NCBI GenBank assembly: GCA_046350275.1 | Contig: JAXMAS010000005.1 | Location: 13,224-77,223 of the forward strand | Reading direction: 5' to 3' | Origin: Gemmataceae bacterium | GTDB taxonomy: Bacteria > Planctomycetota > Planctomycetia > Gemmatales > Gemmataceae | Length of the DNA stretch: 64,000 bases | Shown: positions 1-15,899 of the stretch, piece after piece | Numbering within the stretch: the stretch's first letter is position 1 | Layout of the letters: each line of letters begins with the position of its first letter | Program-made: the position numbers and the translations under genes | The notes under the pieces: generated by a model | What the model was told of the DNA's origin: nothing | Database searches by the model: none | What the model saw: only the letters and a program-made list of their open reading frames with translations

Positions 1-9
1 CTGCGGGCG

Positions 10-699
10 ATGAACGCGATCATCGGCACGCTGATGCTCCTGGGCGTTGCGGCGCGGGCATCGGGGAGTGTCGGCGTCGAACGCGATCGTGATACGCTCG
101 TCAGCCTGATGACGACGCCGCTAACGACGCAGCAAATCCTTTGGGCCAAATGGCTCGGCAGCTTGGCCAGCGTCCGACCACTCTTGTGGTGGCTCGGACC
201 AGTTTGGCTGATCACGATCCTGGCCGGCGGCGTCAACGCTGCGGCGGTCGTGCTGATGGCGATGGCATGGATGGCCCCGGCGGCATTCTTCGCGGCATGG
301 GGTGTGTACTGCTCGGTCACGGCCGCGACGACATTACGGTCGACGACGTGGGGCGTCATGGGCGCGCTCTTTTTCGGCGGCGCTCACTGGATTTGCATCG
401 GCATGTGTGTCTACGCGCCTCTGGCGGCGCTGGCCCATACGGGCGACGAGATGAAGTGGCCGGCGTACATCGAAGCCGGCCTGACGCCGCCGGCCGTGTT
501 TGCCCTGGTCCCGTTCGACGAATTGAATCGCCTCGACATCGGCAATGATGGCTTGTTCCCCGCGTTCATGGTCCTCGGCATGGTTCTGTGGGTGACGGCG
601 GCCGCGATTGTCGGATCGCTAGCCCACGAGCAATTCGCGCGGATGACGCACCGGAACGCCTTCGCCCGATCCGATCTTCGGCCGGAGAAAAAGCCGTGA
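10..699 (+). CDS. C-terminal part of a polytopic membrane protein with an ABC-2-type permease-like domain; the 5' end lies outside the window
   Basis: The ORF is open from the window edge. It has hydrophobic TM segments and the motif ERDRDTLVSLMTTPLTTQQILWAKWLG, which matches the ExExGTLE..L.TP...EI..GK signature of ABC-2 family permeases. It is paralogous to the C-terminal halves of the next three genes. Confidence 0.6.
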   Translation: MNAIIGTLMLLGVAARASGSVGVERDRDTLVSLMTTPLTTQQILWAKWLGSLASVRPLLWWLGPVWLITILAGGVNAAAVVLMAMAWMAPAAFFAAWGVYCSVTAATTLRSTTWGVMGALFFGGAHWICIGMCVYAPLAALAHTGDEMKWPAYIEAGLTPPAVFALVPFDELNRLDIGNDGLFPAFMVLGMVLWVTAAAIVGSLAHEQFARMTHRNAFARSDLRPEKKP

Positions 700-2633
700 A
701 CTTCCTCGGCCCCGTCTTCTGGCACGACCTGGTCCGGGTCGCCCGCCGCCAACGATTGGCCCTCTGGCGGGCGATCTACGGCCTTGCGTTATTGCTGGCT
801 CTGGCCCTCGTGTACGCGAACACGATGCCGCCGAGCGTTTGGTTGGGCGGGCACCTGCGGCCCGGAGAAGAGGCAGCATTTGCCGATGGATTCCTGACCG
901 TGTTCACCGTTGCCCAGTTCGCGGCTGTCATCCTGTTGACACCGGCTCTGGCCGCCAACGCGCTGGCCGAAGAGAAGACGCATAACACGCTCATCTTCCT
1001 ATTCACGACGCAACTCACGAGCCGCGAGATCGTGCTCGGTAAGCTCGTCACCCGACTGATGCACATTGGTTCGCTGGTGCTGACGGGGCTGCCGGTGTTG
1101 GCGATCCTGCAATTCCTCGGTGGCGTGGATCTTCCCAAAGTCGTGGCGTCGTTTGCGGCCGTCGCGGTGACAGCCGTGAGCCTGGCGAGCATCGGGCTGG
1201 CCTGTGCCGTGTTTACCCGCAAGCCGCAAAACGCTCCGTGGCGGGCGTACCAGATCGTCCTGGCCTATGCGGCTCTGAGTAGCGTTTGCATCTGGGCCTA
1301 CGAATTGCCGTGGGGGAGCACGTTCGCCGGGCGCACCGTCACGCGATTTGCACTTCCCGGCGGCATTACCGGCGTCTGGGCGTTTACGCCGACGCTTCCG
1401 CCGCAGCCGTGGGACTCGGAGTTGGTCGAGCCGTTCAACTACGCCAATCCGTACTACGCCTACCGCCGCATTTGGACGGCGCAGCAGCTTGGGGCCGACA
1501 CAAACACCGAATTGCTGAAGATCGGCAGCATTTACGTGGCGACGCACCTGGTCATTGCCGCGCTGTTTTCCGGCCTGGCCATTGCACGACTGCGGGTGGC
1601 GACGGCCAAGACGCTGGGCGGCAGTGGACTGACGCACAAGAACAAGGCGATCCTCAAAGCCGCTCCGCATCCGCCGATCCGCAATCGCCCCGTGTTGTGG
1701 AAGGAACTCTACTGCGAGTCGAAACCGCGGCAGCGATGGCTAGCGCTTCTCTTCACGCGCTGGTTCTTCGTCGCGAGCTTTCTGCCGGCGTGGGTAATCA
1801 TCGTTCTTTTGCTCGATAACAGCTTCAGCAAGCTGGCCTCGTACACGTTGCTTGGGCTGCGCTATGGCGGAACACTTGTCGCCTGCGGCCTGATCGTGCG
1901 TGTCGGGTTGCAGGCGGCGCGATCCATCGGCTCGGAACGCGACCGCGAGACGTTCGATAGCATGATGACCACCGCCCTCGAACCGGACGAGATCGTTAAT
2001 GGCAAATGGTGGGGTAGCTTTCTCTCGGGTCGCTGGATGGTCGTCTGGCTCCTCGTCCATTGGGGCCTGGGCGTGTTGGCTTTGGCCGTTAGCCCATTCG
2101 CAGTGCCGCTCCTGATTCTGGGCGTATTGGTGTTCGCGGCATTCGCGGTCAGCCTCGGGATGTTCTGCGCGGCGCACTTCCCACGGACGAAACAGGCCGC
2201 GTCGGTGACGCTGATGATCCTCCTCTTCGCCACGACACTGATGCCGTGGACGCTTGGGAAGATCACCGGTGCGTTGATGGACCCGCAGCCGGCGTTCAGT
2301 ATGGGCCGACCGTGGCAGCGGCCGCAGATGCCGTGGCCCGAGGCGCTCGCGGGCGGATTGACGCCGCCGCGGGCGCTCGCCTCGTGCGTGATCGAATCCG
2401 ACTATTTTCAGGGCTTCGGCTACTACTACAGACCGGACGAAGACCGCTTCAGCGAGATGGCCGTTCCGATCGCCATCGGCCTGATGGTCTATGGTGGTCT
2501 GGCGATCGTGTTGGCCGCACTGGCCCACCGGGCGTTCCGCGCGTCATTGCCGGGGCATCGCCGGGGCAACGCCGGGCCGCGCGCCGCTTCACGAATCGCC
2601 AGGCCACAGCGCGAACCTGTCGAGGTGGAGTAA
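696..2633 (+). CDS. Fused tandem ABC-2-type permease-like membrane protein (two permease-like repeats in one polypeptide)
   Basis: A GTG at 696 overlaps the upstream stop (GTGA). The N-terminus VNFLGPVFWHDLVRVARRQRLALWRAIYGL is paralogous to the N-termini of genes 3 and 4. Two signature motifs are present (EEKTHNTLIFLFTTQLTSREIVLGKL and ERDRETFDSMMTTALEPDEIVNGKWWG), with many TM helices. The ORF-track start at 588 is probably an upstream extension. Confidence 0.6.
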   Translation: MNFLGPVFWHDLVRVARRQRLALWRAIYGLALLLALALVYANTMPPSVWLGGHLRPGEEAAFADGFLTVFTVAQFAAVILLTPALAANALAEEKTHNTLIFLFTTQLTSREIVLGKLVTRLMHIGSLVLTGLPVLAILQFLGGVDLPKVVASFAAVAVTAVSLASIGLACAVFTRKPQNAPWRAYQIVLAYAALSSVCIWAYELPWGSTFAGRTVTRFALPGGITGVWAFTPTLPPQPWDSELVEPFNYANPYYAYRRIWTAQQLGADTNTELLKIGSIYVATHLVIAALFSGLAIARLRVATAKTLGGSGLTHKNKAILKAAPHPPIRNRPVLWKELYCESKPRQRWLALLFTRWFFVASFLPAWVIIVLLLDNSFSKLASYTLLGLRYGGTLVACGLIVRVGLQAARSIGSERDRETFDSMMTTALEPDEIVNGKWWGSFLSGRWMVVWLLVHWGLGVLALAVSPFAVPLLILGVLVFAAFAVSLGMFCAAHFPRTKQAASVTLMILLFATTLMPWTLGKITGALMDPQPAFSMGRPWQRPQMPWPEALAGGLTPPRALASCVIESDYFQGFGYYYRPDEDRFSEMAVPIAIGLMVYGGLAIVLAALAHRAFRASLPGHRRGNAGPRAASRIARPQREPVEVE

Positions 2634-2638
2634 CTCCG

Positions 2639-4435
2639 ATGCCCGTCCTGGGGCCATTATTCCGACACGAGCTTGTTCGCTTGGCCCATCGGCAACGGCT
2701 GACGCTGTGGCGCAGCGTGTATGCGCTGTGCCTGGTCGGTATCGCGGCGATCACGTTCGCCGCGGCCACCAACGGCTTCGAGAAGCGATTGACGCCGTTC
2801 CTGACGGCCCGCATTGCCGAAGCGTTGTTCGTCGGGCTGATGCTGCTCCAGTTCGTTCTCGCGGCGGTGCTCATCCCACAATGGACGGCCGACGTGGTGG
2901 CCGGCGAGAAGGAGCGACAGACGCTGCCCTTTCTGCTCGTCTCGGACCTGACCAGCCGCGAAGTTGTCCTCGGCAAGATGGCCGCCCGGCTTGCTCAGGT
3001 ATCGATGTTTCTATTTGCGGGGCTGCCGGTCCTGGCCATGCTTCAGCTTTATGGCGGAGCCGACATCGAATTGATCGTCTGGGTTGTCCTGTCTCTCGTG
3101 GCGACACTCTTGAGCGCGAGTGGGGCCGCGATCCTCGCGTCCGTGGCCGAACGGACGACCCGGCAAGCAACGAAACGGGCGGCTCAGATCTTCGCCGTCT
3201 ACGCCTTTTGGCCGATGGCCGCCGATTGGCTCTGCCGCGCCTGGCCGATGATCGGCTACTTCCCGCGAACGCTCGGCTGGCAGGTCTCGTACACGCTCGA
3301 CGATCTCATCGCGGTCATCAATTGGGGCAACCCGCTGTATGTCGGTCGGGAACTCATCAATCAGCTCCGAGCGGGTGGCACCGTTGCCGCGACGATCGCG
3401 CCAATGGCGGCGCAGTACATTCTGTTCCACATGATTGCAGCCGGGATCTGCACCGGCTGGGCGATCCGGCGGCTCCGGCCGGTCCACGCGGAGCAAGGCG
3501 ATGGACCGCCCGTGCCCAAGGCCAACGTCCCGAAATTGCTCAAACCGCCGGGACGACCAACCGTCGGTGAACGCCCTGTCTTCTGGAAGATGCTGCATTG
3601 CGATGCGCGTCTCAGCCGGACGATCTGGCAGTTCAACCTGATGCGCTTTATCTACGTCGCGAGCTACCTGTTTCAGCCGGCTCTCCTGGTGATGATTGCC
3701 ATACAGGTGGGATCACGCAACGCTCAAGCCGTGACCGATGTGTCGATGATCGTGGTCCGTGGCGTGGTCACCGTTGTCCTGGCCGCTCTCTGCATGCACG
3801 CGGCCGGGTTGGCCGCGGCCTGCATCGGGCGCGAGCGGCAGAAACAAACGCTCGACGAACTCCTCCTGACCGATCTCACTGTCGAGGAAATCCTCGCACA
3901 GAAGTGGATCGCCAGCTTCTGGAGTGGGCGATGGGTGTTGCTCTGGGTGCTGGTTCAATGGGCGATCGGCATTGCAGTCGGGGCGTTGCATCCGATGGCG
4001 GTCGTCGCAGTGACGCTCGCCTGGACCGCATTTGCCGCGAGTGGGACAAGCCTGGGCCTCTACTGGGCGGTCCGAACTCCGACGATGCAGCGGGCGAACG
4101 CCTGGACCGGCCTGTGCGGCTTCGCCTTGGTGGCGGTACCGGTCGTGCTGGCGATGTTCCTCCTGATTTGGACGGACGCGCGTCGCGGGTCGGAGCTGCT
4201 CGCGATGTCGCCGCCCGGCACGCTCGGCTTGGCGGCCATCTCACCCGATAACTGGGCGCAACTCCGTCGCGGCGAATGGTCGTACCTGTTGATGGCCGCC
4301 GCCTGCCTCGCCTGCATCGCGTTCCACGCGATCCTGGCGTGGCGGTTGTGGCGTGCCGCGTGCCGACGGTTTGCAATCGTGACGGGCCGAGCGCCCGAAT
4401 CCTGGCGTGCCGTCGCTCCTGGGGAGGTGTCATGA
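2639..4435 (+). CDS. Fused tandem ABC-2-type permease-like membrane protein, paralog 3
   Basis: An internal ATG gives MPVLGPLFRHELVRLAHRQRLTLWRSVYAL, paralogous to the neighbouring N-termini. Motifs EKERQTLPFLLVSDLTSREVVLGKM and ERQKQTLDELLLTDLTVEEILAQKW are present and the protein is polytopic. The start lies 6 nt after the upstream stop. The ORF track extends to 2246, which is probably not real. Confidence 0.6.
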   Translation: MPVLGPLFRHELVRLAHRQRLTLWRSVYALCLVGIAAITFAAATNGFEKRLTPFLTARIAEALFVGLMLLQFVLAAVLIPQWTADVVAGEKERQTLPFLLVSDLTSREVVLGKMAARLAQVSMFLFAGLPVLAMLQLYGGADIELIVWVVLSLVATLLSASGAAILASVAERTTRQATKRAAQIFAVYAFWPMAADWLCRAWPMIGYFPRTLGWQVSYTLDDLIAVINWGNPLYVGRELINQLRAGGTVAATIAPMAAQYILFHMIAAGICTGWAIRRLRPVHAEQGDGPPVPKANVPKLLKPPGRPTVGERPVFWKMLHCDARLSRTIWQFNLMRFIYVASYLFQPALLVMIAIQVGSRNAQAVTDVSMIVVRGVVTVVLAALCMHAAGLAAACIGRERQKQTLDELLLTDLTVEEILAQKWIASFWSGRWVLLWVLVQWAIGIAVGALHPMAVVAVTLAWTAFAASGTSLGLYWAVRTPTMQRANAWTGLCGFALVAVPVVLAMFLLIWTDARRGSELLAMSPPGTLGLAAISPDNWAQLRRGEWSYLLMAAACLACIAFHAILAWRLWRAACRRFAIVTGRAPESWRAVAPGEVS

Positions 4436-6267
4436 CGCAGATCCCGCCGCGCGTCAAACCGGTTCGCCAATACCGGCCGCTCGTCGGACCGCTGTTCGCG
4501 TACGACCTGGTGGCGAGCACGCGCCGCGGCCAGCACGTCGGGCTCCGCGTCCTCATCGCGACACTGCTTCTGATCGTCCTCTACTGCGTCTACTCCGTCG
4601 AACTGCGGGTGGACCCGCTCGCGAACCCGTTCAAGGCCGGACCTACGATCGCCATCAACGCCATGGCCGGGTTCGCCAACAACTTCGCGATCTGGTGCAT
4701 CGTCGTGCAGATGCTCGCGGTACTGCTGGTCACGCCGATCGTCGTCGCCGACGCCATCGCCCGTGAGAAGGAACGGCGTGCCCTCGACTTCCTTTTCGTC
4801 ACCGATTTGACCGACCGCGAGATCGTCTTCGGTAAGCTCGGATCGCGGCTGACGTACCTCGTCGGTGTATTGCTGACGGGAATGCCGGTCGTCGGGATGA
4901 CGCAGCTCTTTGGCGGTGTCAGCCTGGGGCTTTTCATCGGCGGGTACGTCGTCATCTACTCGACGCTGATCGGCTTGACGAGTCTGAGCATCTGTTGCTC
5001 GGTACTGTCGAAAACCTCGCTTCAGGCGACGACGCGGGCATACGCTGTTGCAGCGGGTTACTTGCTCTTCTCGCCGTGCGTGATCGGCATGATGCGTGGC
5101 GATGAAGGGTTCATCGTCGCTGTGACGGCGTTCGCGTTCGCCAACTTGATGGTCTCCGTCTTCGCCGTCGGCACGAGCCTGACAGAGTTGCGACCGCGGG
5201 CACTGGCTTTGACCTACCACCTGCCGCCCGTGCCACTGACGATGCCGTCCGTCCCGGCGGTCGCCAAGACGGCGGTGAAAACGGCGGCACAACCCATGCG
5301 GGGTTGGGGGGCGATGGAGGACGATGGTGGGCCGCCGTTTGTGCGGCCCGCACCGCCGCTCACGCCGAAATTACCTCGGCACGTCGAGGTCTGGCAACCA
5401 CCACCGATTCCGCCGCCGCCGTTACCCCCAATCGACGAGGAGCGGCCGCTTCTGTGGAAGGAAGTGTGTCTCCATTCGTTCACGCGCGGACGGGTCGGCC
5501 CGGCGACGCCGGCGTTGATGGGCGCGATCGTCGTGGCCGCCGTACTGCTGGGCCTGATGCTGATTGTTGTGCTGACAGATCGGAACGCGGGCCTCCACGA
5601 GATCGCGCAGTTGGGGACCATCGTCGTCAAGGTGGTCACAGTCGCCGTCGGTTCCATCCTCGGCCTCGCCGCAATCCTGCACACGACCAACAGCATCGTC
5701 CGGGAGCGTGAGCGCGATACACTCGACGCCTTATTGACACTGCCATTCGACCGGGTAATGCTCCTGGAGGCGAAGTGGCTCGGTGGACTGTACGATCTGC
5801 GGGCGCTGCCGATGATTCTGGGGCTGGGTTGGCTCTTTGGCCTGGTGACGGGCGGGTTGCACCCGATCGCCCTGTTCTGGTTGATCTGCTGTGTATTGGC
5901 CCCGATTGAGTTCCTCGCGAGCCTGGGTCTGTGGTTATCGGCGGTCAACCGTTCGAGCTTGCGAGCGAATCTGGTCGCGGCCCTGTGCGTGCTGGGTGTC
6001 GGCTTCGGGCCGTGGATCGCGGCCAACTATGTCGAGTTTCTGTACCCGCGCGGGTACGGCCAGAGTGATTGGTCGGACATCGTGTATACGACGCTGATGC
6101 CGCCGGCCGCGTGGCTTCATGCAGCGGTTTCCTGGGAAGACTACGCAAAACTGCCGGCGTACACCGGTGACGTGTTGCTATCCGGGGCGCTCCTGTATGC
6201 GATCGGGGCGTGGCTTTTGTGGCGAATGTCGGTCGCCCGATTGCGATGGGTCGCCGGAAAGCGATGA
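4432..6267 (+). CDS. Fused tandem ABC-2-type permease-like membrane protein, paralog 4
   Basis: An ATG at 4432 overlaps the upstream stop (ATGA) and gives MTQIPPRVKPVRQYRPLVGPLFAYDLV. Motifs EKERRALDFLFVTDLTDREIVFGKL and ERERDTLDALLTLPFDRVMLLEAKWLG are present. A Pro-rich linker (PPPIPPPPLPP) joins the two halves. Confidence 0.6.
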   Translation: MTQIPPRVKPVRQYRPLVGPLFAYDLVASTRRGQHVGLRVLIATLLLIVLYCVYSVELRVDPLANPFKAGPTIAINAMAGFANNFAIWCIVVQMLAVLLVTPIVVADAIAREKERRALDFLFVTDLTDREIVFGKLGSRLTYLVGVLLTGMPVVGMTQLFGGVSLGLFIGGYVVIYSTLIGLTSLSICCSVLSKTSLQATTRAYAVAAGYLLFSPCVIGMMRGDEGFIVAVTAFAFANLMVSVFAVGTSLTELRPRALALTYHLPPVPLTMPSVPAVAKTAVKTAAQPMRGWGAMEDDGGPPFVRPAPPLTPKLPRHVEVWQPPPIPPPPLPPIDEERPLLWKEVCLHSFTRGRVGPATPALMGAIVVAAVLLGLMLIVVLTDRNAGLHEIAQLGTIVVKVVTVAVGSILGLAAILHTTNSIVRERERDTLDALLTLPFDRVMLLEAKWLGGLYDLRALPMILGLGWLFGLVTGGLHPIALFWLICCVLAPIEFLASLGLWLSAVNRSSLRANLVAALCVLGVGFGPWIAANYVEFLYPRGYGQSDWSDIVYTTLMPPAAWLHAAVSWEDYAKLPAYTGDVLLSGALLYAIGAWLLWRMSVARLRWVAGKR

Positions 6268-6619: not shown

Positions 6620-7531
6620 TCATGGTACGCTAATCGCCTCACCTCCGGAACGAGTCGCAAGTGCAGGCAGTACGTTTCTTGTTTCATAAGTTAGGAACCG
6701 TACCGATCCTTCCGCGAATAGCCAGTTGCCGCCATCGGAATGCAAACTCCAATAGTGGAATCGATCACATGGGTTGGTTGCATAGCCAGGACCGAACTCA
6801 AATCTGCCGTTGCACTGACTATCCGCGTAATTAACGCCGACGGCCAGCCAACCGCAATCCGGCCCTCGGGCGAGCGAATTGAGCTGGTTTCGATACCAAC
6901 TCCCTGCCTGTCCGGAGTCGGGCGGAGGCCTCTCGCCGACCATGAGGGTATTGCTAACCCCATCTGTGATCTCGCTGAAGCGAATTCCAAGTCTACCGGG
7001 CCTACCGAGAACGCCATCCCAATCCAGCGCCCCTCCCACGCCTAGGTAAGACGTGACTGCCATTTGAGTGTCGGGGCTGGACATGAATCGGGAGATTGCT
7101 TCCCTTCCATCAGCTGGGCACACAAAAAGCCGAATCGGTGTACTGTTGCCAACATGCGGCGGGTCTAAATCCGCATCGGAGGCGATTCGAAAGGCGTCTA
7201 GGATCTGCCGCCAACGAGCATCTTGTTCAAGGTCCGGGAGTATCAAGGCCATCCAACTCAGCCACACGTCCGCGTCGGGTTCTGGCTTGGTTCCACCGAC
7301 GTATACCCGCCGCGGTGGAAGATTGCCATGACGACCGTGATAGTTGGCGAGTCCAACGCCCAACTGTCGCAGGCTATTCGCGCAGGAGATGCGCATCGAG
7401 TTGGCCCGCGCGGCCTGCACTGCCGGTAACGACAAACTCACTAGAAGGCCAACCACACCGATGGCGACGAGTACTTCGGCAAGGGTGACCGCCGTTCGAT
7501 TCGGGTTGCGGGCGTGTCGTCGCATCGTCAA
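6620..7531 (-). CDS. DUF1559 domain protein with a prepilin-type N-terminal cleavage/methylation domain (Planctomycetes-typical)
   Basis: The N-terminus RTAVTLAEVLVAIGVVGLLVSLSLPAVQAARANSMRISCANSLRQLGVGLANYH is the canonical DUF1559 / type IV pilin-like start. Local GC is about 50%, well below the flanks. Confidence 0.8.
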   Translation of the reverse strand: MTMRRHARNPNRTAVTLAEVLVAIGVVGLLVSLSLPAVQAARANSMRISCANSLRQLGVGLANYHGRHGNLPPRRVYVGGTKPEPDADVWLSWMALILPDLEQDARWRQILDAFRIASDADLDPPHVGNSTPIRLFVCPADGREAISRFMSSPDTQMAVTSYLGVGGALDWDGVLGRPGRLGIRFSEITDGVSNTLMVGERPPPDSGQAGSWYRNQLNSLARGPDCGWLAVGVNYADSQCNGRFEFGPGYATNPCDRFHYWSLHSDGGNWLFAEGSVRFLTYETRNVLPALATRSGGEAISVP

Positions 7532-7827
7532 TCCTTGATAGTCACAGGGACTTCGACTTTCGATTGACCCGAGTCACTCGTCGCCATTAGGACAACATGA
7601 CCGTATCGGTTGCGACCCTCAACTCGAGCAGACTTCTTGCATTCAATTGTCACAACGTGACGCTCAGCATCTGTAATTAGGCCATTGTCGATGATCACTC
7701 CAAAATCCTCTGGGGCCGAGGCTACTGTCAAGCCAAACACTTTCGACGGCACAGCACGGCAAATACACCTGGCGCTGTATATTGGCCCATCGGATGAGTT
7801 TCGCGGCAGGACGACAGCGGCGGGCAT
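7528..7827 (-). CDS. Hypothetical protein, translationally coupled to the downstream DUF1559 gene
   Basis: A 99-aa ORF overlaps the DUF1559 start by 4 nt. It lies inside the low-GC island and has no recognisable motif. Confidence 0.4.
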   Translation of the reverse strand: MPAAVVLPRNSSDGPIYSARCICRAVPSKVFGLTVASAPEDFGVIIDNGLITDAERHVVTIECKKSARVEGRNRYGHVVLMATSDSGQSKVEVPVTIKD

Positions 7828-7839
7828 TACTTCATAACC

Positions 7840-8187
7840 TTATACCGCGCGACCCCGTACCGGAATGGCAATCGGTCTTGCATCATCACCCTTCACATAT
7901 ACCAATATGTTTCCTTGCACCGGCCCCTGAGCACTCGGGGAGAAGGCTATTTCCACGCCCGCTACGTTGTGACCATCCGTCGGAGATTCGTCGGCCCGAC
8001 CTTTCACTAGTGTTACGGACAAGCTCTCCGGATTATCGCTGACTACGCGCTCGACTTCACGGGGCAGCGGTCGGGTATCAAACAGGTGAACTGTTTGACG
8101 CGCACAACTTCCAACTGGGACGTCCCAAAATGCTGCCCCGGCGCATACCGCGGGCAACACAAAGTAGGCAAGAATCCGAGTAGCCAT
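7840..8187 (-). CDS. Hypothetical secreted protein
   Basis: The internal start MATRILAYFVLPAVCAGAAFW resembles a signal peptide. The ORF track extends to 8244. It sits in the low-GC island. Confidence 0.4.
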   Translation of the reverse strand: MATRILAYFVLPAVCAGAAFWDVPVGSCARQTVHLFDTRPLPREVERVVSDNPESLSVTLVKGRADESPTDGHNVAGVEIAFSPSAQGPVQGNILVYVKGDDARPIAIPVRGRAV

Positions 8188-8209
8188 ATACCGCTCCACG
8201 ATGGTGAAG

Positions 8210-9262
8210 CTAAGGAGTTTGTTTGCGGCGACGGATGAGCGCAAAACTGATGCCGACTAACAAGACGGCAACTGAAACGGGTGTCAACCAACTTGCAAAC
8301 CCGTTCCCGCGTTCAGTGACAGGCGTGGGTTCCGCCGGTGGAATGCTCGTTAGGAGCGTGGTTGTAACTTGCTTGCTGTTGTCCGGCTCCAGTTTGCCAC
8401 CCGAGCCGACGCGGAACTCGCGTCCCTGTATGCCGTCAATTACCCGAGTACCTTCGGGGAAGGCCAGTGAGAAAGTTGAGTCGGGCACTCCCAAGTTTAC
8501 CTTGATGTCGCGAAAAGATGTTCCATACGTACTGGGTGTTTCATGCCCGTCACGTCCGACAACGATAAGCCGAACCTCGGACGGAAAGTACAAGCCAGGC
8601 GATACCTCTGTGAACCCGCGTACTTCTGCCCCGCCACGAGACTGGCCGTGAGAACTATCCGTAACTAAGCGCTTTCGTACTAAATAGTTGACGGACGGAT
8701 CGAACCACAACTCATTGCGGATTTCGCCGGTCTGGATGTCTAAATAGGTCAACTGCCGGCCGTCGACCGTTACCTCAGCCGCGCTCCGAAGTTTGTGCGG
8801 ACCCGCTAACAGTTCATCTAGCGAATAGACCTGGCCGTTCATGCCAAAGTGCGTGAATAAGGCGGTCAGCCAGACATCGCTATACCCGAAAAAGCCCTTG
8901 CTACGCGATATGGTACCTGTCAGGGATTGTCGCCCGCCGCTCCAGACTGCGGGCGACAATGAGCGCACGTCACCATTTCGACAGGCGATGTCAACCCCAA
9001 AGCCGAGGTAGTTCTCACGTATGCGGACCAACTCTCCCTTTCTCCAATAGTCAATGGAGACCGGGGCTGGTGATGGCGCGGCGGACTTCGCTCGGCCACC
9101 GACTTCGGTAGCCCGGCAATAGAAATCTACCATCGACTGAACCGTCGCCGAGTGGGCTTGCCGCACTAAGGTTGCCAGTTCGTCCTCCCCTCCCCTCACC
9201 GTGGGCACTAGGAAAGTGGGTACTACAGCAGCAGCCATTGTCAGTCGTATGGCAAGCGACAT
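8210..9262 (-). CDS. Hypothetical secreted protein with a C-terminal membrane anchor
   Basis: The N-terminus has a signal-like stretch (MSLAIRLTMAAAVVPTFLVPTVRG). The C-terminus ends in a hydrophobic helix plus a basic tail (WLTPVSVAVLLVGISFALIRRRKQTP), similar to a sorting-signal anchor. It is in the low-GC region. Confidence 0.45.
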   Translation of the reverse strand: MSLAIRLTMAAAVVPTFLVPTVRGGEDELATLVRQAHSATVQSMVDFYCRATEVGGRAKSAAPSPAPVSIDYWRKGELVRIRENYLGFGVDIACRNGDVRSLSPAVWSGGRQSLTGTISRSKGFFGYSDVWLTALFTHFGMNGQVYSLDELLAGPHKLRSAAEVTVDGRQLTYLDIQTGEIRNELWFDPSVNYLVRKRLVTDSSHGQSRGGAEVRGFTEVSPGLYFPSEVRLIVVGRDGHETPSTYGTSFRDIKVNLGVPDSTFSLAFPEGTRVIDGIQGREFRVGSGGKLEPDNSKQVTTTLLTSIPPAEPTPVTERGNGFASWLTPVSVAVLLVGISFALIRRRKQTP

Positions 9263-9363
9263 TGTCGTCCTCGACTAATGGTCAAGCCAGAAAAAACTCA
9301 TGTGATCAAGCGGTGCCTAGACTTCAAAATGGCGGGCTTGAATCACGTTCACAGTCGGCCTGC

Positions 9364-9633
9364 CTATGGGCAAGTGGCAAACGTAGCTCCGCACGGCCCG
9401 CCAGTAGTGCAGGTACCTTGGCAAACAAAATTGGAGCCGTTCGTGCAGCCGCCAGCGCCATTGCCACAGTAGTTGAAGCCACCCGCTCCACTGATCGAAC
9501 AACTGCATAGCTGCTGAGTTTGGAGATTCACTCCAGCAAACGTGCCACCTTGGGAGCACAAGAAGCTCCCGCTACAGGCTCCGAAGACGCCGAAGGCGTA
9601 TCCGCTTACCATCATTGCAGTGCTCAAGGACAA
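9364..9633 (-). CDS. Small Cys/Gly-rich putative secreted peptide (89 aa; alternative ATG starts at residues 7 and 8)
   Basis: The N-terminus is hydrophobic (MSLSTAMMVSGYAFGVFGA). About 12 Cys and 20 Gly follow in GxC/CxxG patterns (CSGSFLC, CSCSISGAGG, CGNGAGGC, CQGTCTTGGPCG). The start is TTG with no clear SD, so coding status is uncertain. Confidence 0.3.
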   Translation of the reverse strand: MSLSTAMMVSGYAFGVFGACSGSFLCSQGGTFAGVNLQTQQLCSCSISGAGGFNYCGNGAGGCTNGSNFVCQGTCTTGGPCGATFATCP

Positions 9634-9696
9634 CGCTGCGAGTAGTCTGGGTCGGGCCTTCTGTGCATGTCCCCTTAGATCAATTCCCAGGATCCT

Positions 9697-9730
9697 GTAA
9701 CGCGAGCGGCGATTATCCCACTCGCGTTAC
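9697..9730. promoter_or_regulatory. Perfect 10-bp inverted repeat GTAACGCGAG-N14-CTCGCGTTAC in a divergent, AT-rich intergenic region, followed by a T9 run
   Basis: The palindrome and poly-T were read directly. The site lies between the minus-strand Cys-rich ORF and the plus-strand exbB-like gene. The T-run is about 22 nt from the stem, too far for a classic intrinsic terminator. Confidence 0.3.
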
Positions 9731-9802
9731 CAATGTCAAGTAAATTACCTAGTTTTTTTTTCTAGGTCACTGGCACCCGGAATACCTGGCGACAGGAACT
9801 AT

Positions 9803-9832
9803 TTGCCTGCTCCAGCGTCAAAAGTGTACATT
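9803..9832 (+). promoter_or_regulatory. Candidate sigma70-like promoter (TTGCCT, 18-nt spacer, TACATT) about 80 nt upstream of the exbB-like gene
   Basis: Hexamers were read by eye in the AT-rich intergenic region. Planctomycete promoter consensus is poorly known, so this is weak. Confidence 0.25.
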
Positions 9833-9910
9833 GTCTGATAGGAAGTCCGCGGCCCTCCCGGCCCGATCGGGGCGCGGTGTCATACCGTTCATATCCGGGG
9901 ACAGCATCTG

Positions 9911-10774
9911 ATGCCGCCGAATCTTTCCCGTGCGCGGGTTTTCGCCTTCGTTGTTGTCTCTCTTCTGACGCTTTTCGCCACCGGATGGATTGCTCCCGCG
10001 ACGGCTCTTGCCGGTCCGGATGACCCAGCCGCCGCGCCGGCGGGCGACGGCCCCGCACCGATTGTGGAAGACAGCCTGCCGATGCACATCATCAAGTCGG
10101 CTGGTTGGGTCTTTGGCCCACTGCTGCTCGGCTTGTCGATGGCGCTCGTAGCCCTTTGCGTTCTGCTTTTCCTGGACCTCCGGATGCAAAACGCCATTCC
10201 ACCGGGCTTTGTCGAAGAGTTCACCGACACGGTGAACAAGCGAAAGTTCAAGGAAGCATTCGATATGGCTCGGGCTGACCCGTCGTTCCTGGGCAAAGTG
10301 CTCACGGGCGGCATGAGCCGGCTGCAATATGGCATCGAGGATGCTCGCGATGCCGCGTTCAACATGGTCGAGTCGATCAAGTCGTCCAAGGAACAGATCA
10401 ACAACTACACCGCCGTTATTTGTTCGCTCGGCCCGCTCATCGGCCTCGTCGGCACCGTGTTCGGCATGATCCTGTCGTTCAAGGAGTTGGCGAAGGGCGG
10501 CAAGATCGATGCAGCCCGTCTTGCGGATGGCATCTCGCATGCGCTCGTCATCACGATGCTGGGGATCGGTTTGGCCGTTCCCGGCTTGTTCTTCAATGCG
10601 TTTTTCCGCAATCGCATTACCCGTATCTCGATGGATACGGCCAACATCGCCGATGACCTTCTGACGCAGATGTACCACGGCTCGAAGAAGCCCGCTCCGC
10701 CGCCCAGTTCCGTGCCGTCCCCGGAACAGCGGCCGACACCCGTGCCGCCGCCCCAGGCGATGCCGACGAAATAG
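9911..10774 (+). CDS. exbB: MotA/TolQ/ExbB family proton-channel protein
   Basis: A signal/TM N-terminus is followed by three TM helices with the conserved ExbB/TolQ segment YTAVICSLGPLIGLVGTVFGMILSFKELA ... ISHALVITMLGIGLAVPGLFFNAFF. Confidence 0.8.
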   Translation: MPPNLSRARVFAFVVVSLLTLFATGWIAPATALAGPDDPAAAPAGDGPAPIVEDSLPMHIIKSAGWVFGPLLLGLSMALVALCVLLFLDLRMQNAIPPGFVEEFTDTVNKRKFKEAFDMARADPSFLGKVLTGGMSRLQYGIEDARDAAFNMVESIKSSKEQINNYTAVICSLGPLIGLVGTVFGMILSFKELAKGGKIDAARLADGISHALVITMLGIGLAVPGLFFNAFFRNRITRISMDTANIADDLLTQMYHGSKKPAPPPSSVPSPEQRPTPVPPPQAMPTK

Positions 10775-10832
10775 GAGTCCGGAGTCCGCTGCATTTCTGA
10801 CCCCGATTCCTGACCCCTGACTTCAGGTTGCA

Positions 10833-11300
10833 ATGTCCCACGGGCCGACGAGCAACAGCGAACTGGCGGAACCCAATCTGATTCCGCTGCTGGACCTGGT
10901 GTTGCAGCTCGTCATGTTCTTCATGATGTGTGCCAACTTCGCGATGCAGGAGAACGATCAGTCGATCAAACTGCCCACCTCGCAACAGGCCAAACCTGTC
11001 GCCGACACCGGGCCGGATGTTCTGCACCTCGGCATCGACCAGGATGGCGCCGTGCGCGTCGTCGGTCGGCCGCCGCTGACGACGGACGAAGAGATCGTCA
11101 CATTTCTGCGACTCGATGTGTACGAGGCCAACAAACGCCGCGCAGCCGAACGGGGCGAAAGCGAAGTTCGGACGCTCGTGATCGTTCGTGCCGATCGAAA
11201 TACCGCCTACGAGAAGGTCTATCGCGTCATGCGTCAGTGCCAGCAAGCCGGTCTGCGGAAGCTCCAACTGCGGGCCGACCGCGGGGGTGGCTCGTCGTGA
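10833..11300 (+). CDS. exbD: ExbD/TolR family biopolymer transport protein
   Basis: The N-terminal pattern NLIPLLDLVLQLVMFFMM (single TM) and a periplasmic domain with VIVRADRNTAYEKVYRVMRQCQQAG are typical of ExbD/TolR. Confidence 0.75.
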   Translation: MSHGPTSNSELAEPNLIPLLDLVLQLVMFFMMCANFAMQENDQSIKLPTSQQAKPVADTGPDVLHLGIDQDGAVRVVGRPPLTTDEEIVTFLRLDVYEANKRRAAERGESEVRTLVIVRADRNTAYEKVYRVMRQCQQAGLRKLQLRADRGGGSS

Positions 11301-11821
11301 GGAATCACAGGCACCGCAATCCGGACCGCCCGCTGGATATCCAGCTTCCGATCACGCCAATGCTGGATATGTCGTTCCAGCTCCTGGCCTTCTTCGTCGC
11401 CACGTTCCAGTCCGCGAGCGCAGCCGAAGGGCAACTCGACATGTTCCTCCCGAAAGCCGGCGAGGCGCGGGCCCAGGATCCATCGCAGATCGACCCCAAC
11501 AAGAACTCGGAAGACATCGACACGTCGAGTGACGTGACGGTGTCGATCGCGGCCACAGCCACGGGCGATGCGGGCGATATCAAGATCATCGAAAAGGCCA
11601 CGACGACTCCCATTCCGGGCGAGACTGTTGGCGACCGCATCGCCGCTCTCGGCGCGGCCCTGAAGAAGCTCAACGCTGGGGCCGGCAACAAGGACAACAT
11701 CAAGATCGAAGCGGAGGGCCGGCTCAAATACGCTCGGCTCGTCGAGGTGATAGATGCTTGCATGAAAGCTGGTTACCGGCAAGTCGGCTTTGCACCGCCG
11801 CCGGACCTGGGGCGACGCTAG
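11297..11821 (+). CDS. exbD: Second ExbD/TolR family protein
   Basis: A GTG start overlaps the upstream stop (GTGA). The motif ITPMLDMSFQLLAFFVATFQ matches the ExbD TM signature, and the C-terminus KIEAEGRLKYARLVEVIDACMKAGYRQVGF matches the ExbD periplasmic domain. An alternative start is the ATG at 11360. Confidence 0.7.
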   Translation: MRNHRHRNPDRPLDIQLPITPMLDMSFQLLAFFVATFQSASAAEGQLDMFLPKAGEARAQDPSQIDPNKNSEDIDTSSDVTVSIAATATGDAGDIKIIEKATTTPIPGETVGDRIAALGAALKKLNAGAGNKDNIKIEAEGRLKYARLVEVIDACMKAGYRQVGFAPPPDLGRR

Positions 11822-11862
11822 CGGGAACCGTATTTCGCGGCCGCGCATCGAATGTGGTAGCC

Positions 11863-12750
11863 ATGGCGCGAACCTCTGCCATCGTTGGGCTTCTTGTCGT
11901 CGGGGGGGTGTTTGCTGCGCAGCTGCCGAAGGCCGACGATCGCGGTCCGGGCCACCCGCCAGACGATCCGCAGTCCTTCCCGATAGAGCCGAACCCGTAT
12001 TTCAATTCCGAACTGCTCCGTTACGTCGAGGATAAGCTGCCCATTCAGAACGCGCGGCAGAATCGCTACGAGGCCCAGTGCTACGAGGAGCTATTCCAAC
12101 ACGCCCGGTCGTTGCCGGCCGATCTGCTACGCCGCGCTTCGGGCCGAGGGCTGAAGTACTATCAACTGTTCGGTGAAGATCGGGCCTTGTATCGTGGATG
12201 CCTGACCCACGTCGAGGGGCCAATGCGAATGCTGCGGGCCTATGAACCGCCGGCGCGCCTTCGGGACGATGCGGGCGGATGGACCGAAATGTACGAGGCG
12301 TGGGTCTTCGACACGGAGTCGGGCGGCAATCCATACTGCGTGATCTTCAGCGAAAAGCCCGATAATCTCAAGGCGGTCGAACGCGAGGGAACTCAGTACG
12401 TCGAGACCGATGGCTTCTTCTTCAAGCGTTACCGCTATGGTGCCCAGGACGGTCCGCGCGATGCGCCGCTATTGATCGCTCGCTCCATCCGGCCGATCGC
12501 CGCGCCGAGGATGGCGAAGACGGGTGGAGCACTGTGGGACTTGCCATTGGGCGTCCTGCTTACGGCAATGGCGGCCATCGGGGTGGTGATCGTCGCTGCG
12601 GGAGGCACGTGGCTGTGGTTCCGGCGCGACGATGCCCGGGCGCGCGAACGGCTGAAGCGGGCACGGCAGGCTAACCCACCCTCGGATTGGGGCGACGGCG
12701 GGCCAACCGCGGACCGTGGCCCGTTTGGCGGCAGCCCATCGTTGAATTAG
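11863..12750 (+). CDS. Hypothetical membrane protein (N-terminal signal/TM, C-terminal TM) in the exbBD cluster
   Basis: An internal ATG gives MARTSAIVGLLVVGGVFAAQLP. A C-terminal helix (LPLGVLLTAMAAIGVVIVAAGGTWLWF) is followed by a basic tail. No known domain was recognised. Confidence 0.45.
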   Translation: MARTSAIVGLLVVGGVFAAQLPKADDRGPGHPPDDPQSFPIEPNPYFNSELLRYVEDKLPIQNARQNRYEAQCYEELFQHARSLPADLLRRASGRGLKYYQLFGEDRALYRGCLTHVEGPMRMLRAYEPPARLRDDAGGWTEMYEAWVFDTESGGNPYCVIFSEKPDNLKAVEREGTQYVETDGFFFKRYRYGAQDGPRDAPLLIARSIRPIAAPRMAKTGGALWDLPLGVLLTAMAAIGVVIVAAGGTWLWFRRDDARARERLKRARQANPPSDWGDGGPTADRGPFGGSPSLN

Positions 12751-12817
12751 CTGGGTCGATACAATGACTGCTACCGGGATTGGCCGCGATGCCGCTCTCG
12801 GACGTTGACGTAGGCGA

Positions 12818-14419
12818 ATGGGAGCGATGTCGATGGCCACCGTCTCGCAAGACACCGGCACCAACAACGGTCGGCAAACCTCCGCCCCGTCGCCGACCGT
12901 CATGATTCGACAAATGTCCATCGCCTACGAAGGCGAGGACGATCGCTTCCTGAAGCGGCAGGTTCCTGCGTGGGTGATTTCCGGCGGCATCCATCTGCTG
13001 CTCATCTCGGCGTTTTTGATCTCGGCGGCCTTCAACACCCCAATCGTCGCTCCGCCGCCTGAAAACGTCATCATCGAGACGAAGGTCGAGGACGCTGCGC
13101 CCGAGAAGCAGAACTTCGAGAACACGGACGTCGGTCTCGATCCCTCGAAGGAAACGAACTACAACCTCGATCGCATCGAAAACATCTCCGTGCCTGGCCA
13201 ATTCAAGCCGGATGAACCAGTGGGCATCGTCGGCGCACCCGAAGGCGCGGCCCAGACGATTCCGCCACCGGCCGGCTTTGGCGGCGGGCAGGGCGGTGGT
13301 GCGGAAAGTGCCGTACCCGGCGCGGCCCAGATGTTCGGCGATCAGGGCGGCTTTATGGGCGGTCGGGCGATCCCCGGCATGGCGTTCGCCGGCCGGTCGG
13401 GTGCCACCCGACAAAAGATGCTGGCCGAGGGCGGCGGAAACGCGCCGAGCGAGGCGGCAGTCGCCAAGGGGTTGCAGTGGCTCGTGAAGATGCAGAAGAA
13501 CGATGGCCGCTGGGATATTGACGGCAACGTCAATGATTCCGTCGCTGGGACCGCGCTCGCATTGCTGCCATTCCTGGCCGCCGGTCACACCCACAAGACG
13601 ATCAAGGGCGAAAAAGAGAGCCCGTATGCCAAGACGGTCGAGTACGGCTTGAGCTACATCAAGGGCAAGCAGAAGGCGAACGGTAGCTACGGCAACCGCG
13701 ACCTGTATGGTCACGCGATTGCCACGATGGCTTTGTGCGAAGCGTACGGCATGTCGCAGGATCCGTCGCTCAAGCGGCCGGCCCAATCGGGACTGGACTA
13801 CCTCGTCAAGGCGCAACACCAGGTCGGCGGCTTCCGCTATACGCCCAACCAGGCCGGCGACACGTCGGTAACAGGCTGGTGTCTTCAGTGCATGAAGTCG
13901 GGCCTGCTCGCGGGCTTGAGTGTGCCCCGCGAAGCGTTCTACAAGGTCTCGAACTACCTCGACACCGTGCAGACGCAGGAGGGGGCCGCGTATGGCTATA
14001 CGGGGCCGGGGAACACGTCGTCGATGACCGCCGTCGGTCTGCTCTGTCGCGAATACCTCGGCTGGGGGCCGAAGAATCCGAAGCTGGTCGCCGGCGTCGA
14101 GAACCTGAAGAAGAACATGCCGCGCAAGGGCCTCGACAACATCTACTACTACTATTACGCGACGCAGGTGATGCACTTCTTCGGTGGCGACGACTGGGAC
14201 AAGCTCTGGAACCCGAAGATGCGAGATCTATTGATCGACACGCAGGATAACACGACAACGGCGAACCGTGGTTCGTGGACGCCGGATCGCACGATCACCG
14301 GCACGGGCGGCGGCCGCCTGACTTCCACGTGTCTGTCCCTGTTGACGCTGGAGGTCTACTACCGCCATCTGCCGCTGTACAAGCGCGACAACAGCGGATT
14401 GAAGGAACTCGACGGCTGA
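12818..14419 (+). CDS. TonB-like anchored protein: N-terminal TM anchor, Pro-rich linker, C-terminal prenyltransferase/squalene-cyclase-like (alpha/alpha toroid) repeat domain
   Basis: One TM helix (WVISGGIHLLLISAFLISAAF) is followed by a Pro/Glu-rich spacer (IVAPPPENVIIETKVEDAAPEKQ) and a Gly-rich segment. Repeated QW-type motifs (GLQWLVKMQKNDGRW, GLSYIKGKQKANGSYG, GLDYLVKAQHQVGGFRYT, YLDTVQTQEGAAYGY, NIYYYYYATQVMHF) are typical of terpenoid cyclase/prenyltransferase toroid repeats. Confidence 0.6.
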   Translation: MGAMSMATVSQDTGTNNGRQTSAPSPTVMIRQMSIAYEGEDDRFLKRQVPAWVISGGIHLLLISAFLISAAFNTPIVAPPPENVIIETKVEDAAPEKQNFENTDVGLDPSKETNYNLDRIENISVPGQFKPDEPVGIVGAPEGAAQTIPPPAGFGGGQGGGAESAVPGAAQMFGDQGGFMGGRAIPGMAFAGRSGATRQKMLAEGGGNAPSEAAVAKGLQWLVKMQKNDGRWDIDGNVNDSVAGTALALLPFLAAGHTHKTIKGEKESPYAKTVEYGLSYIKGKQKANGSYGNRDLYGHAIATMALCEAYGMSQDPSLKRPAQSGLDYLVKAQHQVGGFRYTPNQAGDTSVTGWCLQCMKSGLLAGLSVPREAFYKVSNYLDTVQTQEGAAYGYTGPGNTSSMTAVGLLCREYLGWGPKNPKLVAGVENLKKNMPRKGLDNIYYYYYATQVMHFFGGDDWDKLWNPKMRDLLIDTQDNTTTANRGSWTPDRTITGTGGGRLTSTCLSLLTLEVYYRHLPLYKRDNSGLKELDG

Positions 14420-14640
14420 TTTACGGTGAGCGTGGCAGCATCAGCCCGCCGTGCCTTCGCGAGTACGTCGGGCTGACGTCCCGACGGCTGCCTTATCAAT
14501 TTGCCCATCTTTCCCTCCAACTCGGCAATCCTGGCGACTTCGGCCAATGCCACAAGGTCCGCAACGCCGATGCAATCGGCGAGACGCGCCGTCCCGGACG
14601 GATTCGGCAAGCCGGTGCGTTGGGGAGGGAGAGTCAACTC

Positions 14641-15810
14641 ATGGCACGGATGTGCGCGAAGCTGTCGCTGGCCGCGGCCCTGGTCGGAGGATCGCTGGCG
14701 TTCGGACAGGATGCCCCGAAACCGACAACAGCCCCGAAGGAAGGCGAAAACGTCCTGTCGCTGGTCAAGGAAGGCCAGCCGGGGCGGCGCTGCAAGGTCC
14801 TGCGTAGCTATAAGCATCCGTCCGGCGGCATCGCCTACGAAGTCAAAGACGAGAAGACCGGCGAGGTCATGACCGTCATTGAGGGCGTCGCCAAGGACGG
14901 GACGAAGGACGTCAAGATTGAGGCGAAAGATGCCAAAGTCGAGACGAAAGATGCGAAGTCGACGTCGAAGCTGTTCCCGATCAAGATTCCGTCGCTGAAA
15001 GACACGAAGGCTTCCAGCAAGGATCGAGTGATCGCCCCGACGGAAGTCAAGCTCCCGGTCACGGATGCAAAAGTGACATCGACGGAGTTGAAGCTCCCGG
15101 TCACGGATGCGAAGGTGACATCGACTGAGGCGAAGCTTCCGATCAAAGATGGGAAAGTGACGCCGATTGACGCGAAGCTTCCGGCCAAAACGGCGACGGA
15201 TGGGCCGAGCCTGATGGCGAGCGATCCGATCCTGAGTCCCAAGGCGTACACGAGTAACTCCAAGGTAGTTAAGGAGTTCTCGTCCGAGCCAGCCCAGCCG
15301 ACCGAGTCGAAACCGGCTAGCCAGACGGTGACGACCAAGTACCCCCAGCCGCCGGTGCCGGCCGCCAAGCGGTGGTTCCAGTGGAGCCTCGACTCGAAGG
15401 CACCGGCCAAGCCGGTCGTCAAAGCTCGGCCGATGCCAATGCCGATGCCGATGCCGATGCCGATGCCGACAATGGGTCCGGTGGAGCCTACGGTCTTCGT
15501 TGCGGCGACTTCGCCCGATCCGGTCATCCGGCTGATCGGTCGCTTGCGTGACGATATGCTCCCGTCGATGCGCGAAATCTCGGCCACTCAGTTGGCCTAT
15601 TATGGCCGTGGCCGCGCCGACGCCTTTGACGCTCTCGTCGATGCGGCTCAGCACGACCCAGCCCCGACTGTGCGGGCCTCGTGCCTGCGTTGCCTTGGCG
15701 AAATGCGAGCCAAAACGCCGACCACCATGGCCATGATGCAGACCATGTCTCAGGCCGACGGCGATGAGACGGTCCGCCAAACCGCCATGTCGGTGATGGC
15801 GGGATGGTGA
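14641..15810 (+). CDS. Secreted HEAT-repeat protein with tandem amino-acid repeats (KLPVTDAKVTSTE x3-4; PM x6)
   Basis: An internal ATG gives a signal peptide (MARMCAKLSLAAALVGGSLAFG). The C-terminus has HEAT-like repeats (PDPVIRLIGRLRDD, AFDALVDAAQHDPAPTVRASCLRCLGEM, DETVRQTAMSVMAGW). The DNA carries 42-nt tandem repeats at 15049-15174 and a hexamer (ATGCCG) array at 15431-15469. Confidence 0.55.
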   Translation: MARMCAKLSLAAALVGGSLAFGQDAPKPTTAPKEGENVLSLVKEGQPGRRCKVLRSYKHPSGGIAYEVKDEKTGEVMTVIEGVAKDGTKDVKIEAKDAKVETKDAKSTSKLFPIKIPSLKDTKASSKDRVIAPTEVKLPVTDAKVTSTELKLPVTDAKVTSTEAKLPIKDGKVTPIDAKLPAKTATDGPSLMASDPILSPKAYTSNSKVVKEFSSEPAQPTESKPASQTVTTKYPQPPVPAAKRWFQWSLDSKAPAKPVVKARPMPMPMPMPMPMPTMGPVEPTVFVAATSPDPVIRLIGRLRDDMLPSMREISATQLAYYGRGRADAFDALVDAAQHDPAPTVRASCLRCLGEMRAKTPTTMAMMQTMSQADGDETVRQTAMSVMAGW

Positions 15811-15820
15811 CGAAATCGGG

Positions 15821-15871
15821 GGCGGTCACGATTCCCGCGGCGGTCGCCTCGCCGCGGGAATCGTGACTGCC
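15821..15871 (+). terminator. Long perfect hairpin (18-bp perfect arms, extendable to about 22 bp, 7-nt loop) 11 nt after the stop of the HEAT-repeat gene
   Basis: GTCACGATTCCCGCGGCG-GTCGCCT-CGCCGCGGGAATCGTGAC was read directly. No strong T-run follows, so it may be a factor-dependent or structural terminator, or a REP-like element. Confidence 0.45.
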
Positions 15872-15899
15872 CCCGATGCCATTTTGGGTAAGTGTCCCC

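Follow-up and report, generated by a model that had tools for sequence, protein, structure and literature searches.

The first 6267 nucleotides (nt) of the 64-kb stretch of DNA analysed here (contig JAXMAS010000005.1; hereafter the window) carry four consecutive genes, g1 to g4, which lie on the same (+) strand and form one operon in this Gemmataceae genome. Judged by family profiles and structural models, each product is a complete pseudo-heterodimer, in which two homologous exporter membrane domains of type V (ABC-2, NosY/GldF-like) are joined in one chain of 12 transmembrane (TM) helices. The proteins are of a known kind and belong to the ABC-2 superfamily; what is undescribed is the organisation, an array of paralogs that consists of permeases only. 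ATP-binding cassette (ABC) exporters are usually recognised and annotated as permease-ATPase gene pairs, and here a large family of complete, fused pairs of transmembrane domains (TMDs) is systematically encoded without its motor and has repeatedly expanded into arrays of old paralogs. The explanation favoured here, with some reserve, is that self-contained type V TMD pairs are driven in trans by a separately encoded and possibly shared ABC-2 ATPase, and that paralog-specific outside loops lend them different specificities. The genes and their junctions are as follows (aa, amino acids).

g1, 3' part: 1-699, + strand; last 232 aa, the 5' end being cut off by the window edge
g2: 696-2633, + strand; 645 aa, GTG start; fused double ABC-2 (type V) permease
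g3: 2639-4435, + strand; 598 aa, ATG start; fused double ABC-2 permease, the most divergent paralog
g4: 4432-6267, + strand; 611 aa, ATG start; fused double ABC-2 permease with a Pro-rich inter-domain linker
g1/g2 junction: 684-699, + strand; GGAG 684-687, GTG start 696-698, TGA stop 697-699, with the 4-nt overlap GTGA 696-699
g2/g3 junction: 2622-2641, + strand; GAGGTGGAG, TAA, 5-nt gap (2634-2638), ATG
g3/g4 junction: 4421-4435, + strand; GGGGAGG, then the 4-nt overlap ATGA 4432-4435

A sequence-only reading of the window had placed here four tandem permease genes, the first truncated by the window edge, and had taken them to be operonic; all four are present as described, co-directional, and with overlapping or near-abutting junctions. 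The overlaps that it gave (GTGA at 696 and ATGA at 4432) are read directly from the sequence, and its 6-nt gap between g2 and g3 has to be corrected to 5 nt. Likewise read from the sequence, a GGAG-type Shine-Dalgarno-like site lies 5' of every start (684-687, 2622-2630 and 4421-4427). The gene calls of NCBI give the same starts for g2 and g3, with P0001 (645 aa) and P0246 (598 aa) at 100% identity and coverage; both proteins are labelled 'MAG: ABC transporter permease subunit [Gemmataceae bacterium]' (MAG, metagenome-assembled genome) and are encoded on a 425,156-bp contig. A scan for promoters and terminators 3' of g4 gave no signal above shuffled background. DNA of high G+C content yields many long spurious open reading frames (ORFs) on both strands, and the array might on that account be an annotation artefact, or else decaying duplicated DNA without function. 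However, the frames are intact and match the NCBI calls, the profile matches are significant, the fold models are adequately confident, and orthologs at 40-80% identity occur in many contigs, those of g3 (39-67%) sharing contigs with those of g2. The ratio of nonsynonymous to synonymous substitution rates (dN/dS) is 0.15-0.32 (0.30 for g4), values that are upper estimates because dS is near saturation; these ratios show the array to be under purifying selection. The comparative data on selection and conservation thus refute the artefact or decay reading, which deserves hardly any credence.

The assignment to the ABC-2 superfamily comes from profile searches. Pfam PF12679 (ABC2_membrane_2) matches g2 (48.3 bits, E 1e-12), g3 (52.3 bits, E 6e-14) and g4 (59.8 bits, E 3e-16), each in two stretches and above the gathering cut-off of 27.2 bits, and the g1 fragment scores slightly below it (25.3 bits, E 1e-5). 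This fragment, matched by the family profile at profile positions 373-606 (E 6e-53), is the C-terminal ABC-2 membrane domain of a fused permease of ~690-710 aa, the first of the array, and is 64% and 52% identical to the first array genes of two related loci, L001 and L002, respectively; g4 is 50% identical to gene 3 of L002. The N-terminal and C-terminal halves are homologous to each other (hhalign probability 98.1%, E 9e-14), and their alignment covers the coupling-helix region. AlphaFold2 (AF2) models built from ortholog alignments have 6+6 TM helices both in g2 (predicted local distance difference test, pLDDT, 75.9; predicted template modelling score, pTM, 0.71) and in g3 (pLDDT 78.9, pTM 0.68); the helices were counted on the secondary structure of the models, Kyte-Doolittle hydropathy being too noisy for the purpose. 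The same plan is seen twice per chain in both models: each repeat opens with an amphipathic helix at its N-terminus, continues with a pair of long TM helices, a short helix and another three TM helices, and closes with the sixth TM helix, which follows an outside loop containing short helices. Short helix pairs are predicted where the type V fold would have them, before the last TM helix (H239-249/H252-264 and H547-563 in g2; H220-228/H232-244 and H525-543 in g3), though at lower model confidence. The ABC-2 hidden Markov model (HMM) search and the topology prediction had been named beforehand as checks; both are consistent with a permease fold, and the PF12679 matches of g2 to g4 and the 6+6 topology agree with the earlier description of the products as fused double ABC-2 permeases.

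For both models the top Foldseek match, extending along the entire chain, is Rv1217c of Mycobacterium tuberculosis. This protein consists of two fused TMDs and is served by two copies of a separate ATPase, Rv1218c (PMC11406275), and the type V fold to which it belongs is characterized by short, unswapped TMDs, a connecting helix before TM1 and TM7, a coupling helix between TM2 and TM3 and between TM8 and TM9, and an EH-turn-EH element (PMC11406275). The models have the short six-helix TMDs without domain swapping and the connecting and coupling helices at these places, and two homologous ABC-2 TMDs share one polypeptide, which is the architecture of Rv1217c. Compared with the Rv1217c-Rv1218c structures (PDB 8K1M-8K1P), the array proteins have the same fused-TMD plan at 11-15% identity in structural alignments; Rv1217c, though, is a single gene, whereas the Gemmataceae genes form a paralog array without an ATPase gene in the operon. 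In M. tuberculosis the ATPase gene Rv1218c presumably adjoins Rv1217c, as the consecutive locus numbers imply. NosY is not fused but forms a homodimer, and its gene accompanies those of its ATPase NosF and its periplasmic partner NosD. The similarity of the array proteins to NosY of the NosDFY(L) system (PDB 7O0Y, 7QBA) is structural only, at 14-17% identity, and nosD, nosF, nosL and nosZ were not found in the window or in related loci, so that the array proteins are not counted as NosY. Among NCBIfam models, GldF is the best match of g1 (E 2e-4) and g2 (E 8e-10) and is matched by g3 and g4 too; the best array score of 39.1 bits compares with a cut-off of 288.5 bits for the GldF equivalog TIGR03518, and in the GldA-GldF-GldG system of Bacteroidota GldF is unfused, whereas the array permeases are fused. 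Planctomycetes are not known to have a gliding apparatus of the Bacteroidota type. In the library searched for orphan ABC-2 permeases of Planctomycetes and for GldAFG in Planctomycetes, no account of the fused family or of its arrangement was found.

The fused repeat had been called unusual in the sequence-only reading. For the fusion itself this does not hold, since the structure of Rv1217c has been solved and the family profile retrieves at least 3,598 cluster representatives (50% identity) at E <= 1e-30; the best 150 of its matches all cover both halves. For the permease-only array it holds. Some proteins of the family (P0279, P0282, P0345, P0354, P0362, P0370, P0378, P0381 and P0396) reach 1100-1200 aa; their 12 TM helices are followed by one more TM helix and by a conserved helical C-terminal extension of ~500 aa, which has no Pfam match; these extensions are 30-36% identical among themselves. 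As a 'Rosetta stone' link to a partner the extension was rejected, since it is no ATPase and does not resemble the ~800-aa accessory protein described below.

The absence of a motor gene was seen first in the window itself, where no ORF pairs a Walker A motif with an LSGGQ-type signature, a phmmer search with an ABC ATPase seed gives no match, and Pfam scans of 30 other long ORFs give no ABC_tran; the sequence-only reading, too, had noted no ATPase in the window. Because the window opens inside g1, relatives were used to see what lies upstream. The related arrays, L001 being one short contig from a genome-collection scan with g2, are listed here.

L001 (CAZNSL010000631.1, 4100 bp): g1 and the start of g2, 64-80% aa identity; upstream an HD-domain protein, downstream the contig end
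L002/L003 (~50% identity; 3.2-Mb contig): 691/656/607/592 aa; upstream a divergent DJ-1/PfpI gene, downstream a pterin-binding DUF6513 gene
JGI 98,690-bp contig: 713/660/588/598 aa; upstream a divergent small ORF, then an M48 peptidase, downstream ribosomal protein L25
L004: three-gene array
JGI 98,027-bp contig: five-gene array, 701/678/569/606/604 aa
L054: g1-g2-g3-g4 in the order of the window, 48-50%, 52%, 41% and 37% identity; upstream divergent ribosomal L35/L20 genes, downstream DUF1559 genes, as in the window

In none of these loci was an ABC ATPase found within the 4-10 kb available on each side, the gene 5' of g1, whose inspection had been advised, was never an ATPase, and the arrays of three to five genes sit among differing flanking genes. 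L001 is labelled as a MAG of an 'uncultured Alcaligenaceae'; as its g1 and g2 homologs are 64-80% identical to Gemmataceae genes, it is probably a misbinned contig. A pterin-binding gene (DUF6513/PterinBD-DUF4346) lies directly 3' of the array in L002 (15607-16944), L004 (13797-15164), L005 (13156-14490) and the JGI 98,027-bp contig, in one case with a 4-nt overlap with the last permease gene; in the window no such gene adjoins the array. L005 and L054 have, in addition, Chorismate_bind, GHMP-kinase and DUF447 genes nearby. This adjacency could be a functional link or merely conserved synteny.

A metagenome scan added 46 loci, which were annotated with the family HMM, the phmmer ABC ATPase seed and the motif scan. 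At least one full-length fused permease was present in 28 loci (19 singletons, 2 pairs, 4 triples and 3 quadruples), and throughout their 294 kb of flanks no cognate ATPase adjoined a fused permease. An ABC ATPase ORF of any kind occurred in only 3 of the 28 (L011, L019 and L005). The ATPases of L011 and L019 were rejected as partners, since they are of the LolD/MacB type (GPSGSGKS...LSGGE) and 28-29% identical to the ABC-2-type ATPase; that of L005 is of the GldA/DrrA type and lies 6 kb from the permease, on the opposite strand and in a separate operon. By contrast, the closest unfused relatives (L044, L045, L047 and L051; family-profile E 1e-20 to 5e-26) each have an ATPase gene directly upstream of, or overlapping, the permease gene. 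These pairs resemble the array in the coupling-helix motif (GERERQTFDSLL...GK) and the N-terminal helix motif, and wherever the permease N-terminus is on the contig its connecting- and coupling-helix motifs are those of the fused members; they differ from it in having one membrane domain per gene and an adjoining ATPase. As no ATPase gene is found near the array, either here or in relatives, its motor is probably encoded elsewhere.

The same gene neighbourhoods invite another explanation, namely that the fused ABC-2 membrane domains work without any motor, as receptors, anchors, lipid-handling proteins or passive or secondary carriers. The cognate ATPase is consistently missing beside fused members (where 3 kb or more of flank is available on either side, 10 of 11 loci lack an ABC ATPase ORF of any kind) while the unfused relatives always keep theirs, and the family has prospered in the motor-less state, counting at least 3,598 clusters at E <= 1e-30. 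YhgE/Pip-type proteins are ABC-2-like membrane proteins that are not known to have an ATPase. If the array proteins were independent of ATP, they would represent a new use of the type V fold. What bears most directly on this question is the conservation of the cytoplasmic helices, whose positions in the window are given below.

g2 half 1 connecting-helix motif: 708-755, + strand; GPVFWHDLVRVARRQR; motif scan, model helix H5-17
Connecting-helix equivalents: g2 half 2 1689-1730; g3 2651-2698 and 3575-3616; g4 4486-4533 and 5446-5487; + strand; motif scan
g2 half 1 coupling-helix motif: 969-1043, + strand; EEKTHNTLIFLFTTQLTSREIVLGK; motif scan; the 'signature' of the sequence-only reading
Coupling-helix equivalents: g1 79-150; g2 half 2 1935-2006; g3 2906-2977 and 3833-3904; g4 4765-4836 and 5704-5775; + strand; motif scan

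In the models, the connecting helices are H5-17 and H332-340 in g2 and H5-17 and H313-322 in g3, and the coupling helices are H98-104 (TM2-TM3) and H420-424 (TM8-TM9) in g2 and H96-101 and H405-409 in g3. The signature noticed earlier, ExExxTL...EI..GK, runs from the last part of TM2 through the coupling helix into the first part of TM3; the motif scan recovers it in all 7 half-domains of the window, with the proposed division into type A (..REIVLGK) in the N-terminal halves and type B (..KW.G) in the C-terminal halves. Conservation was scored over 42 fused homologs, drawn from all paralog types, by averaging within each segment how frequent the commonest residue is (scale 0 to 1). The highest values are those of connecting helix 1 (0.76), the region of coupling helix 1 and the short turn between TM3 and TM4 (0.74 each), followed by the region of coupling helix 2 (0.68) and connecting helix 2 (0.60); the outside loops are the least conserved (0.23-0.25). 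Residues invariant in the alignment of g2-type proteins are G5, P6, D11, R17, E93, T98, L107, E111, I112 and K116 in half 1, and W335, K336, E337, E414, T419, D421, T425, L428 and K437 in half 2. Where type V transporters have been solved, it is the connecting and coupling helices that contact the ATPase (PMC11406275), and the conservation pattern in these alignments would be that of selection to keep docking one. Since the docking elements are the best conserved parts, the best reading is that the products are real ABC permeases with an ATPase in trans. Against proteins without a motor it can be added that ATPase docking is the only known role of these helices in type V transporters, and that an ATPase of the matching type without a permease exists in the same bacterial family; independence from an ATPase is accordingly held to be unlikely. 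Nothing favours the suggestion, made in the sequence-only reading, of a membrane scaffold rather than a classical transporter, given that the elements which dock an ATPase are the most conserved.

The ABC-2-type ATPase of L005 is a plausible candidate for the separate motor. It has 311 aa, the signature LSRGM and a DrrA-type C-terminal domain (a weak Pfam match, E 3e-3), and among the matches listed it is represented by at least 120 protein clusters at 82-96% identity, nearly all of them at 85% or more and several labelled Gemmataceae. Its best NCBIfam match is GldA (242 bits, against an equivalog cut-off of 402.6), which mirrors GldF as the best match of g1 and g2. Its identity to the ATPases of the unfused relatives L044, L045 and L051, with which it has the signature LSRG[MQ] in common, is 37-43%, and to LolD-type ATPases 28-29%. 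The gene stands in a conserved operon of MazG, a protein of ~800 aa and the 311-aa ATPase, found in L005 (2433-6192, - strand), in L052, a Gemmataceae MAG of NCBI (7293-10933, + strand), and in L053 (7082-10936, + strand). No gene for a six-TM permease belongs to this operon in any of the three, and neither such a gene nor a fused permease lies within 10 kb of it in L052 and L053. The ~800-aa protein was considered as a hidden permease and rejected, having only a signal peptide and two central TM helices; it is mostly non-cytoplasmic, has no Pfam or NCBIfam match, and loosely recalls the accessory protein GldG, to which it gives no match either. In L005 its 841-aa ORF (3365-5890, - strand) contains an Arg/Pro/Gly-rich stretch (~aa 570-700) that is missing from the L052 and L053 orthologs and resembles the frameshift errors of long-read assembly. 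Gemmataceae thus have permease operons that include no motor gene as well as an operon that encodes the motor but no permease, which fits a split system.

A mechanism could follow from these elements. In the predicted fold, each half has a cytoplasmic connecting helix at its N-terminus, a coupling helix between its second and third TM helix, and short outside-loop helices before its last TM helix. The two coupling helices of each product would serve as docking sites for two copies of an ABC-2-type ATPase that is encoded separately, and by binding and hydrolysing ATP the complex would export a substrate from the membrane or the cytoplasm, or else power a periplasmic partner in the manner of NosFY. 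The paralogs, ~30% identical and most different in the outside loops, would offer three to five specificities on a common motor, for which the 311-aa GldA/DrrA-type ATPase, nearly invariant across Gemmataceae, may be a plausible candidate. Dependence on an ATPase, the identity of that ATPase and the use of one ATPase for all paralogs are what we infer here; the multi-substrate exporter array that had been suggested is a reasonable candidate reading. A bolder and more doubtful version would see a modular ABC system in which one GldA/DrrA-type ATPase and a large two-TM accessory protein, encoded apart, are the common motor for the three to five fused TMD pairs and for the singletons, with specificity swapped at the level of the membrane domain, or, more radically, TMD machines that need no ATPase.

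Several points weigh against driving in trans by a separate ATPase. A sequence search of PDB with the family profile gave nothing at E <= 1, for which reason the fold comparison was needed; the Foldseek E-values against PDB are modest (1e-3), and the AF2 models have only medium confidence (pLDDT 76-79). The conserved cytoplasmic helices could bind a partner other than a nucleotide-binding domain (NBD). The pairing of permease and ATPase is drawn from co-occurrence in the bacterial family and from family type, and the evidence on the ATPase comes entirely from related genomes, the genome of the array itself being covered over 64 kb only. P0001 (identical to g2 of the window) and the Gemmataceae ATPase P0168 come from different assemblies; L053, with the ATPase, and L002, with the array, share a metagenome sample but may belong to different genomes. 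Genes for NBDs, moreover, are always better conserved than genes for TMDs, and the conservation of the ATPase is therefore weak evidence for a role as a hub. If the reading with one ATPase and several membrane modules is true, the array would offer a clear example from nature of exporters that share a motor, which would bear on the evolution of ABC specificity; it would also aid the annotation of a sizeable block of membrane proteins of Planctomycetota, whose envelope biology is poorly understood.

The history of the paralogs could be reconstructed in outline. Those of the window are 27-33% identical and collinear over both halves, and the N-terminal and C-terminal halves have diverged far more than like halves between paralogs, which means that fusion came first and duplication followed; the question of tandem duplication after the fusion, raised in the sequence-only reading, is hereby answered in the affirmative. 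With paralogs at ~30% identity and orthologs between genomes at 37-67%, the duplications are old, older than the divergence among these Gemmataceae. The 42 fused homologs were placed in a neighbour-joining tree built from identity distances, which resolves clades of g1, g2 and g4, and a g3 clade that contains the g3 of the window and the middle gene of L025; the last genes of L002 and of L025 represent a further paralog type, and singletons of more distant planctomycetes group with the g1 type. From this simple tree and the five-gene contig, the ancestral array may have had five members, followed by lineage-specific losses. In a more distant relative, L015, an independent four-gene tandem array of fused permeases is present (7340-16122), whose members group together or with the g1 type and not with the g2, g3 and g4 clades; tandem expansion therefore recurs in the fused family.

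Such long-standing company could also mean that the paralogs join as subunits in a single hetero-oligomeric membrane assembly, whether or not an ATPase takes part, and are hence kept together at a fixed ratio of expression. Distinct clades at ~30% identity are indeed retained jointly, in the same order in L054 at 37-52% identity, and start and stop codons overlap at two of the three window junctions and at several junctions of the JGI 98,027-bp contig. The overlaps, however, are not conserved (gaps of 5-105 nt in L002 and L054), and the membership varies: L002 is without a g3-type gene and differs in its fourth gene, the array of L004 comprises three genes and that of one contig five, and singletons are many. 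Each protein is, in addition, already a complete TMD pair like Rv1217c, and the four-gene array of L015 arose independently, so that an obligate assembly of the paralogs appears improbable, more so than function without a motor. Separate transporters with an ATPase in trans remain the favoured reading.

The rest of the window contains genes that fit Planctomycetota, among them those for DUF1559 proteins, a BBP7 porin and a DUF1501 protein. At 9911-11821 (+ strand), ~4 kb downstream of the array, MotA/ExbB-type and ExbD-type genes lie side by side as an energy-transducing module; opposite-strand genes separate it from the array. The next ORF (11758-12750) has only a weak, sub-threshold match to a LapA domain. 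Two long ORFs on the + strand, 18355-21321 (988 aa) and 25139-28279 (1046 aa), match neither Pfam, NCBIfam nor the permease profile; both lie in regions with a skew of T over A as strong as that of the permease genes, and they may encode membrane proteins. Finally, the segment 58001-62000 has a G+C content of 0.71, against ~0.63 elsewhere, with long overlapping ORFs on both strands beside the DUF1501 gene (60455-61831).

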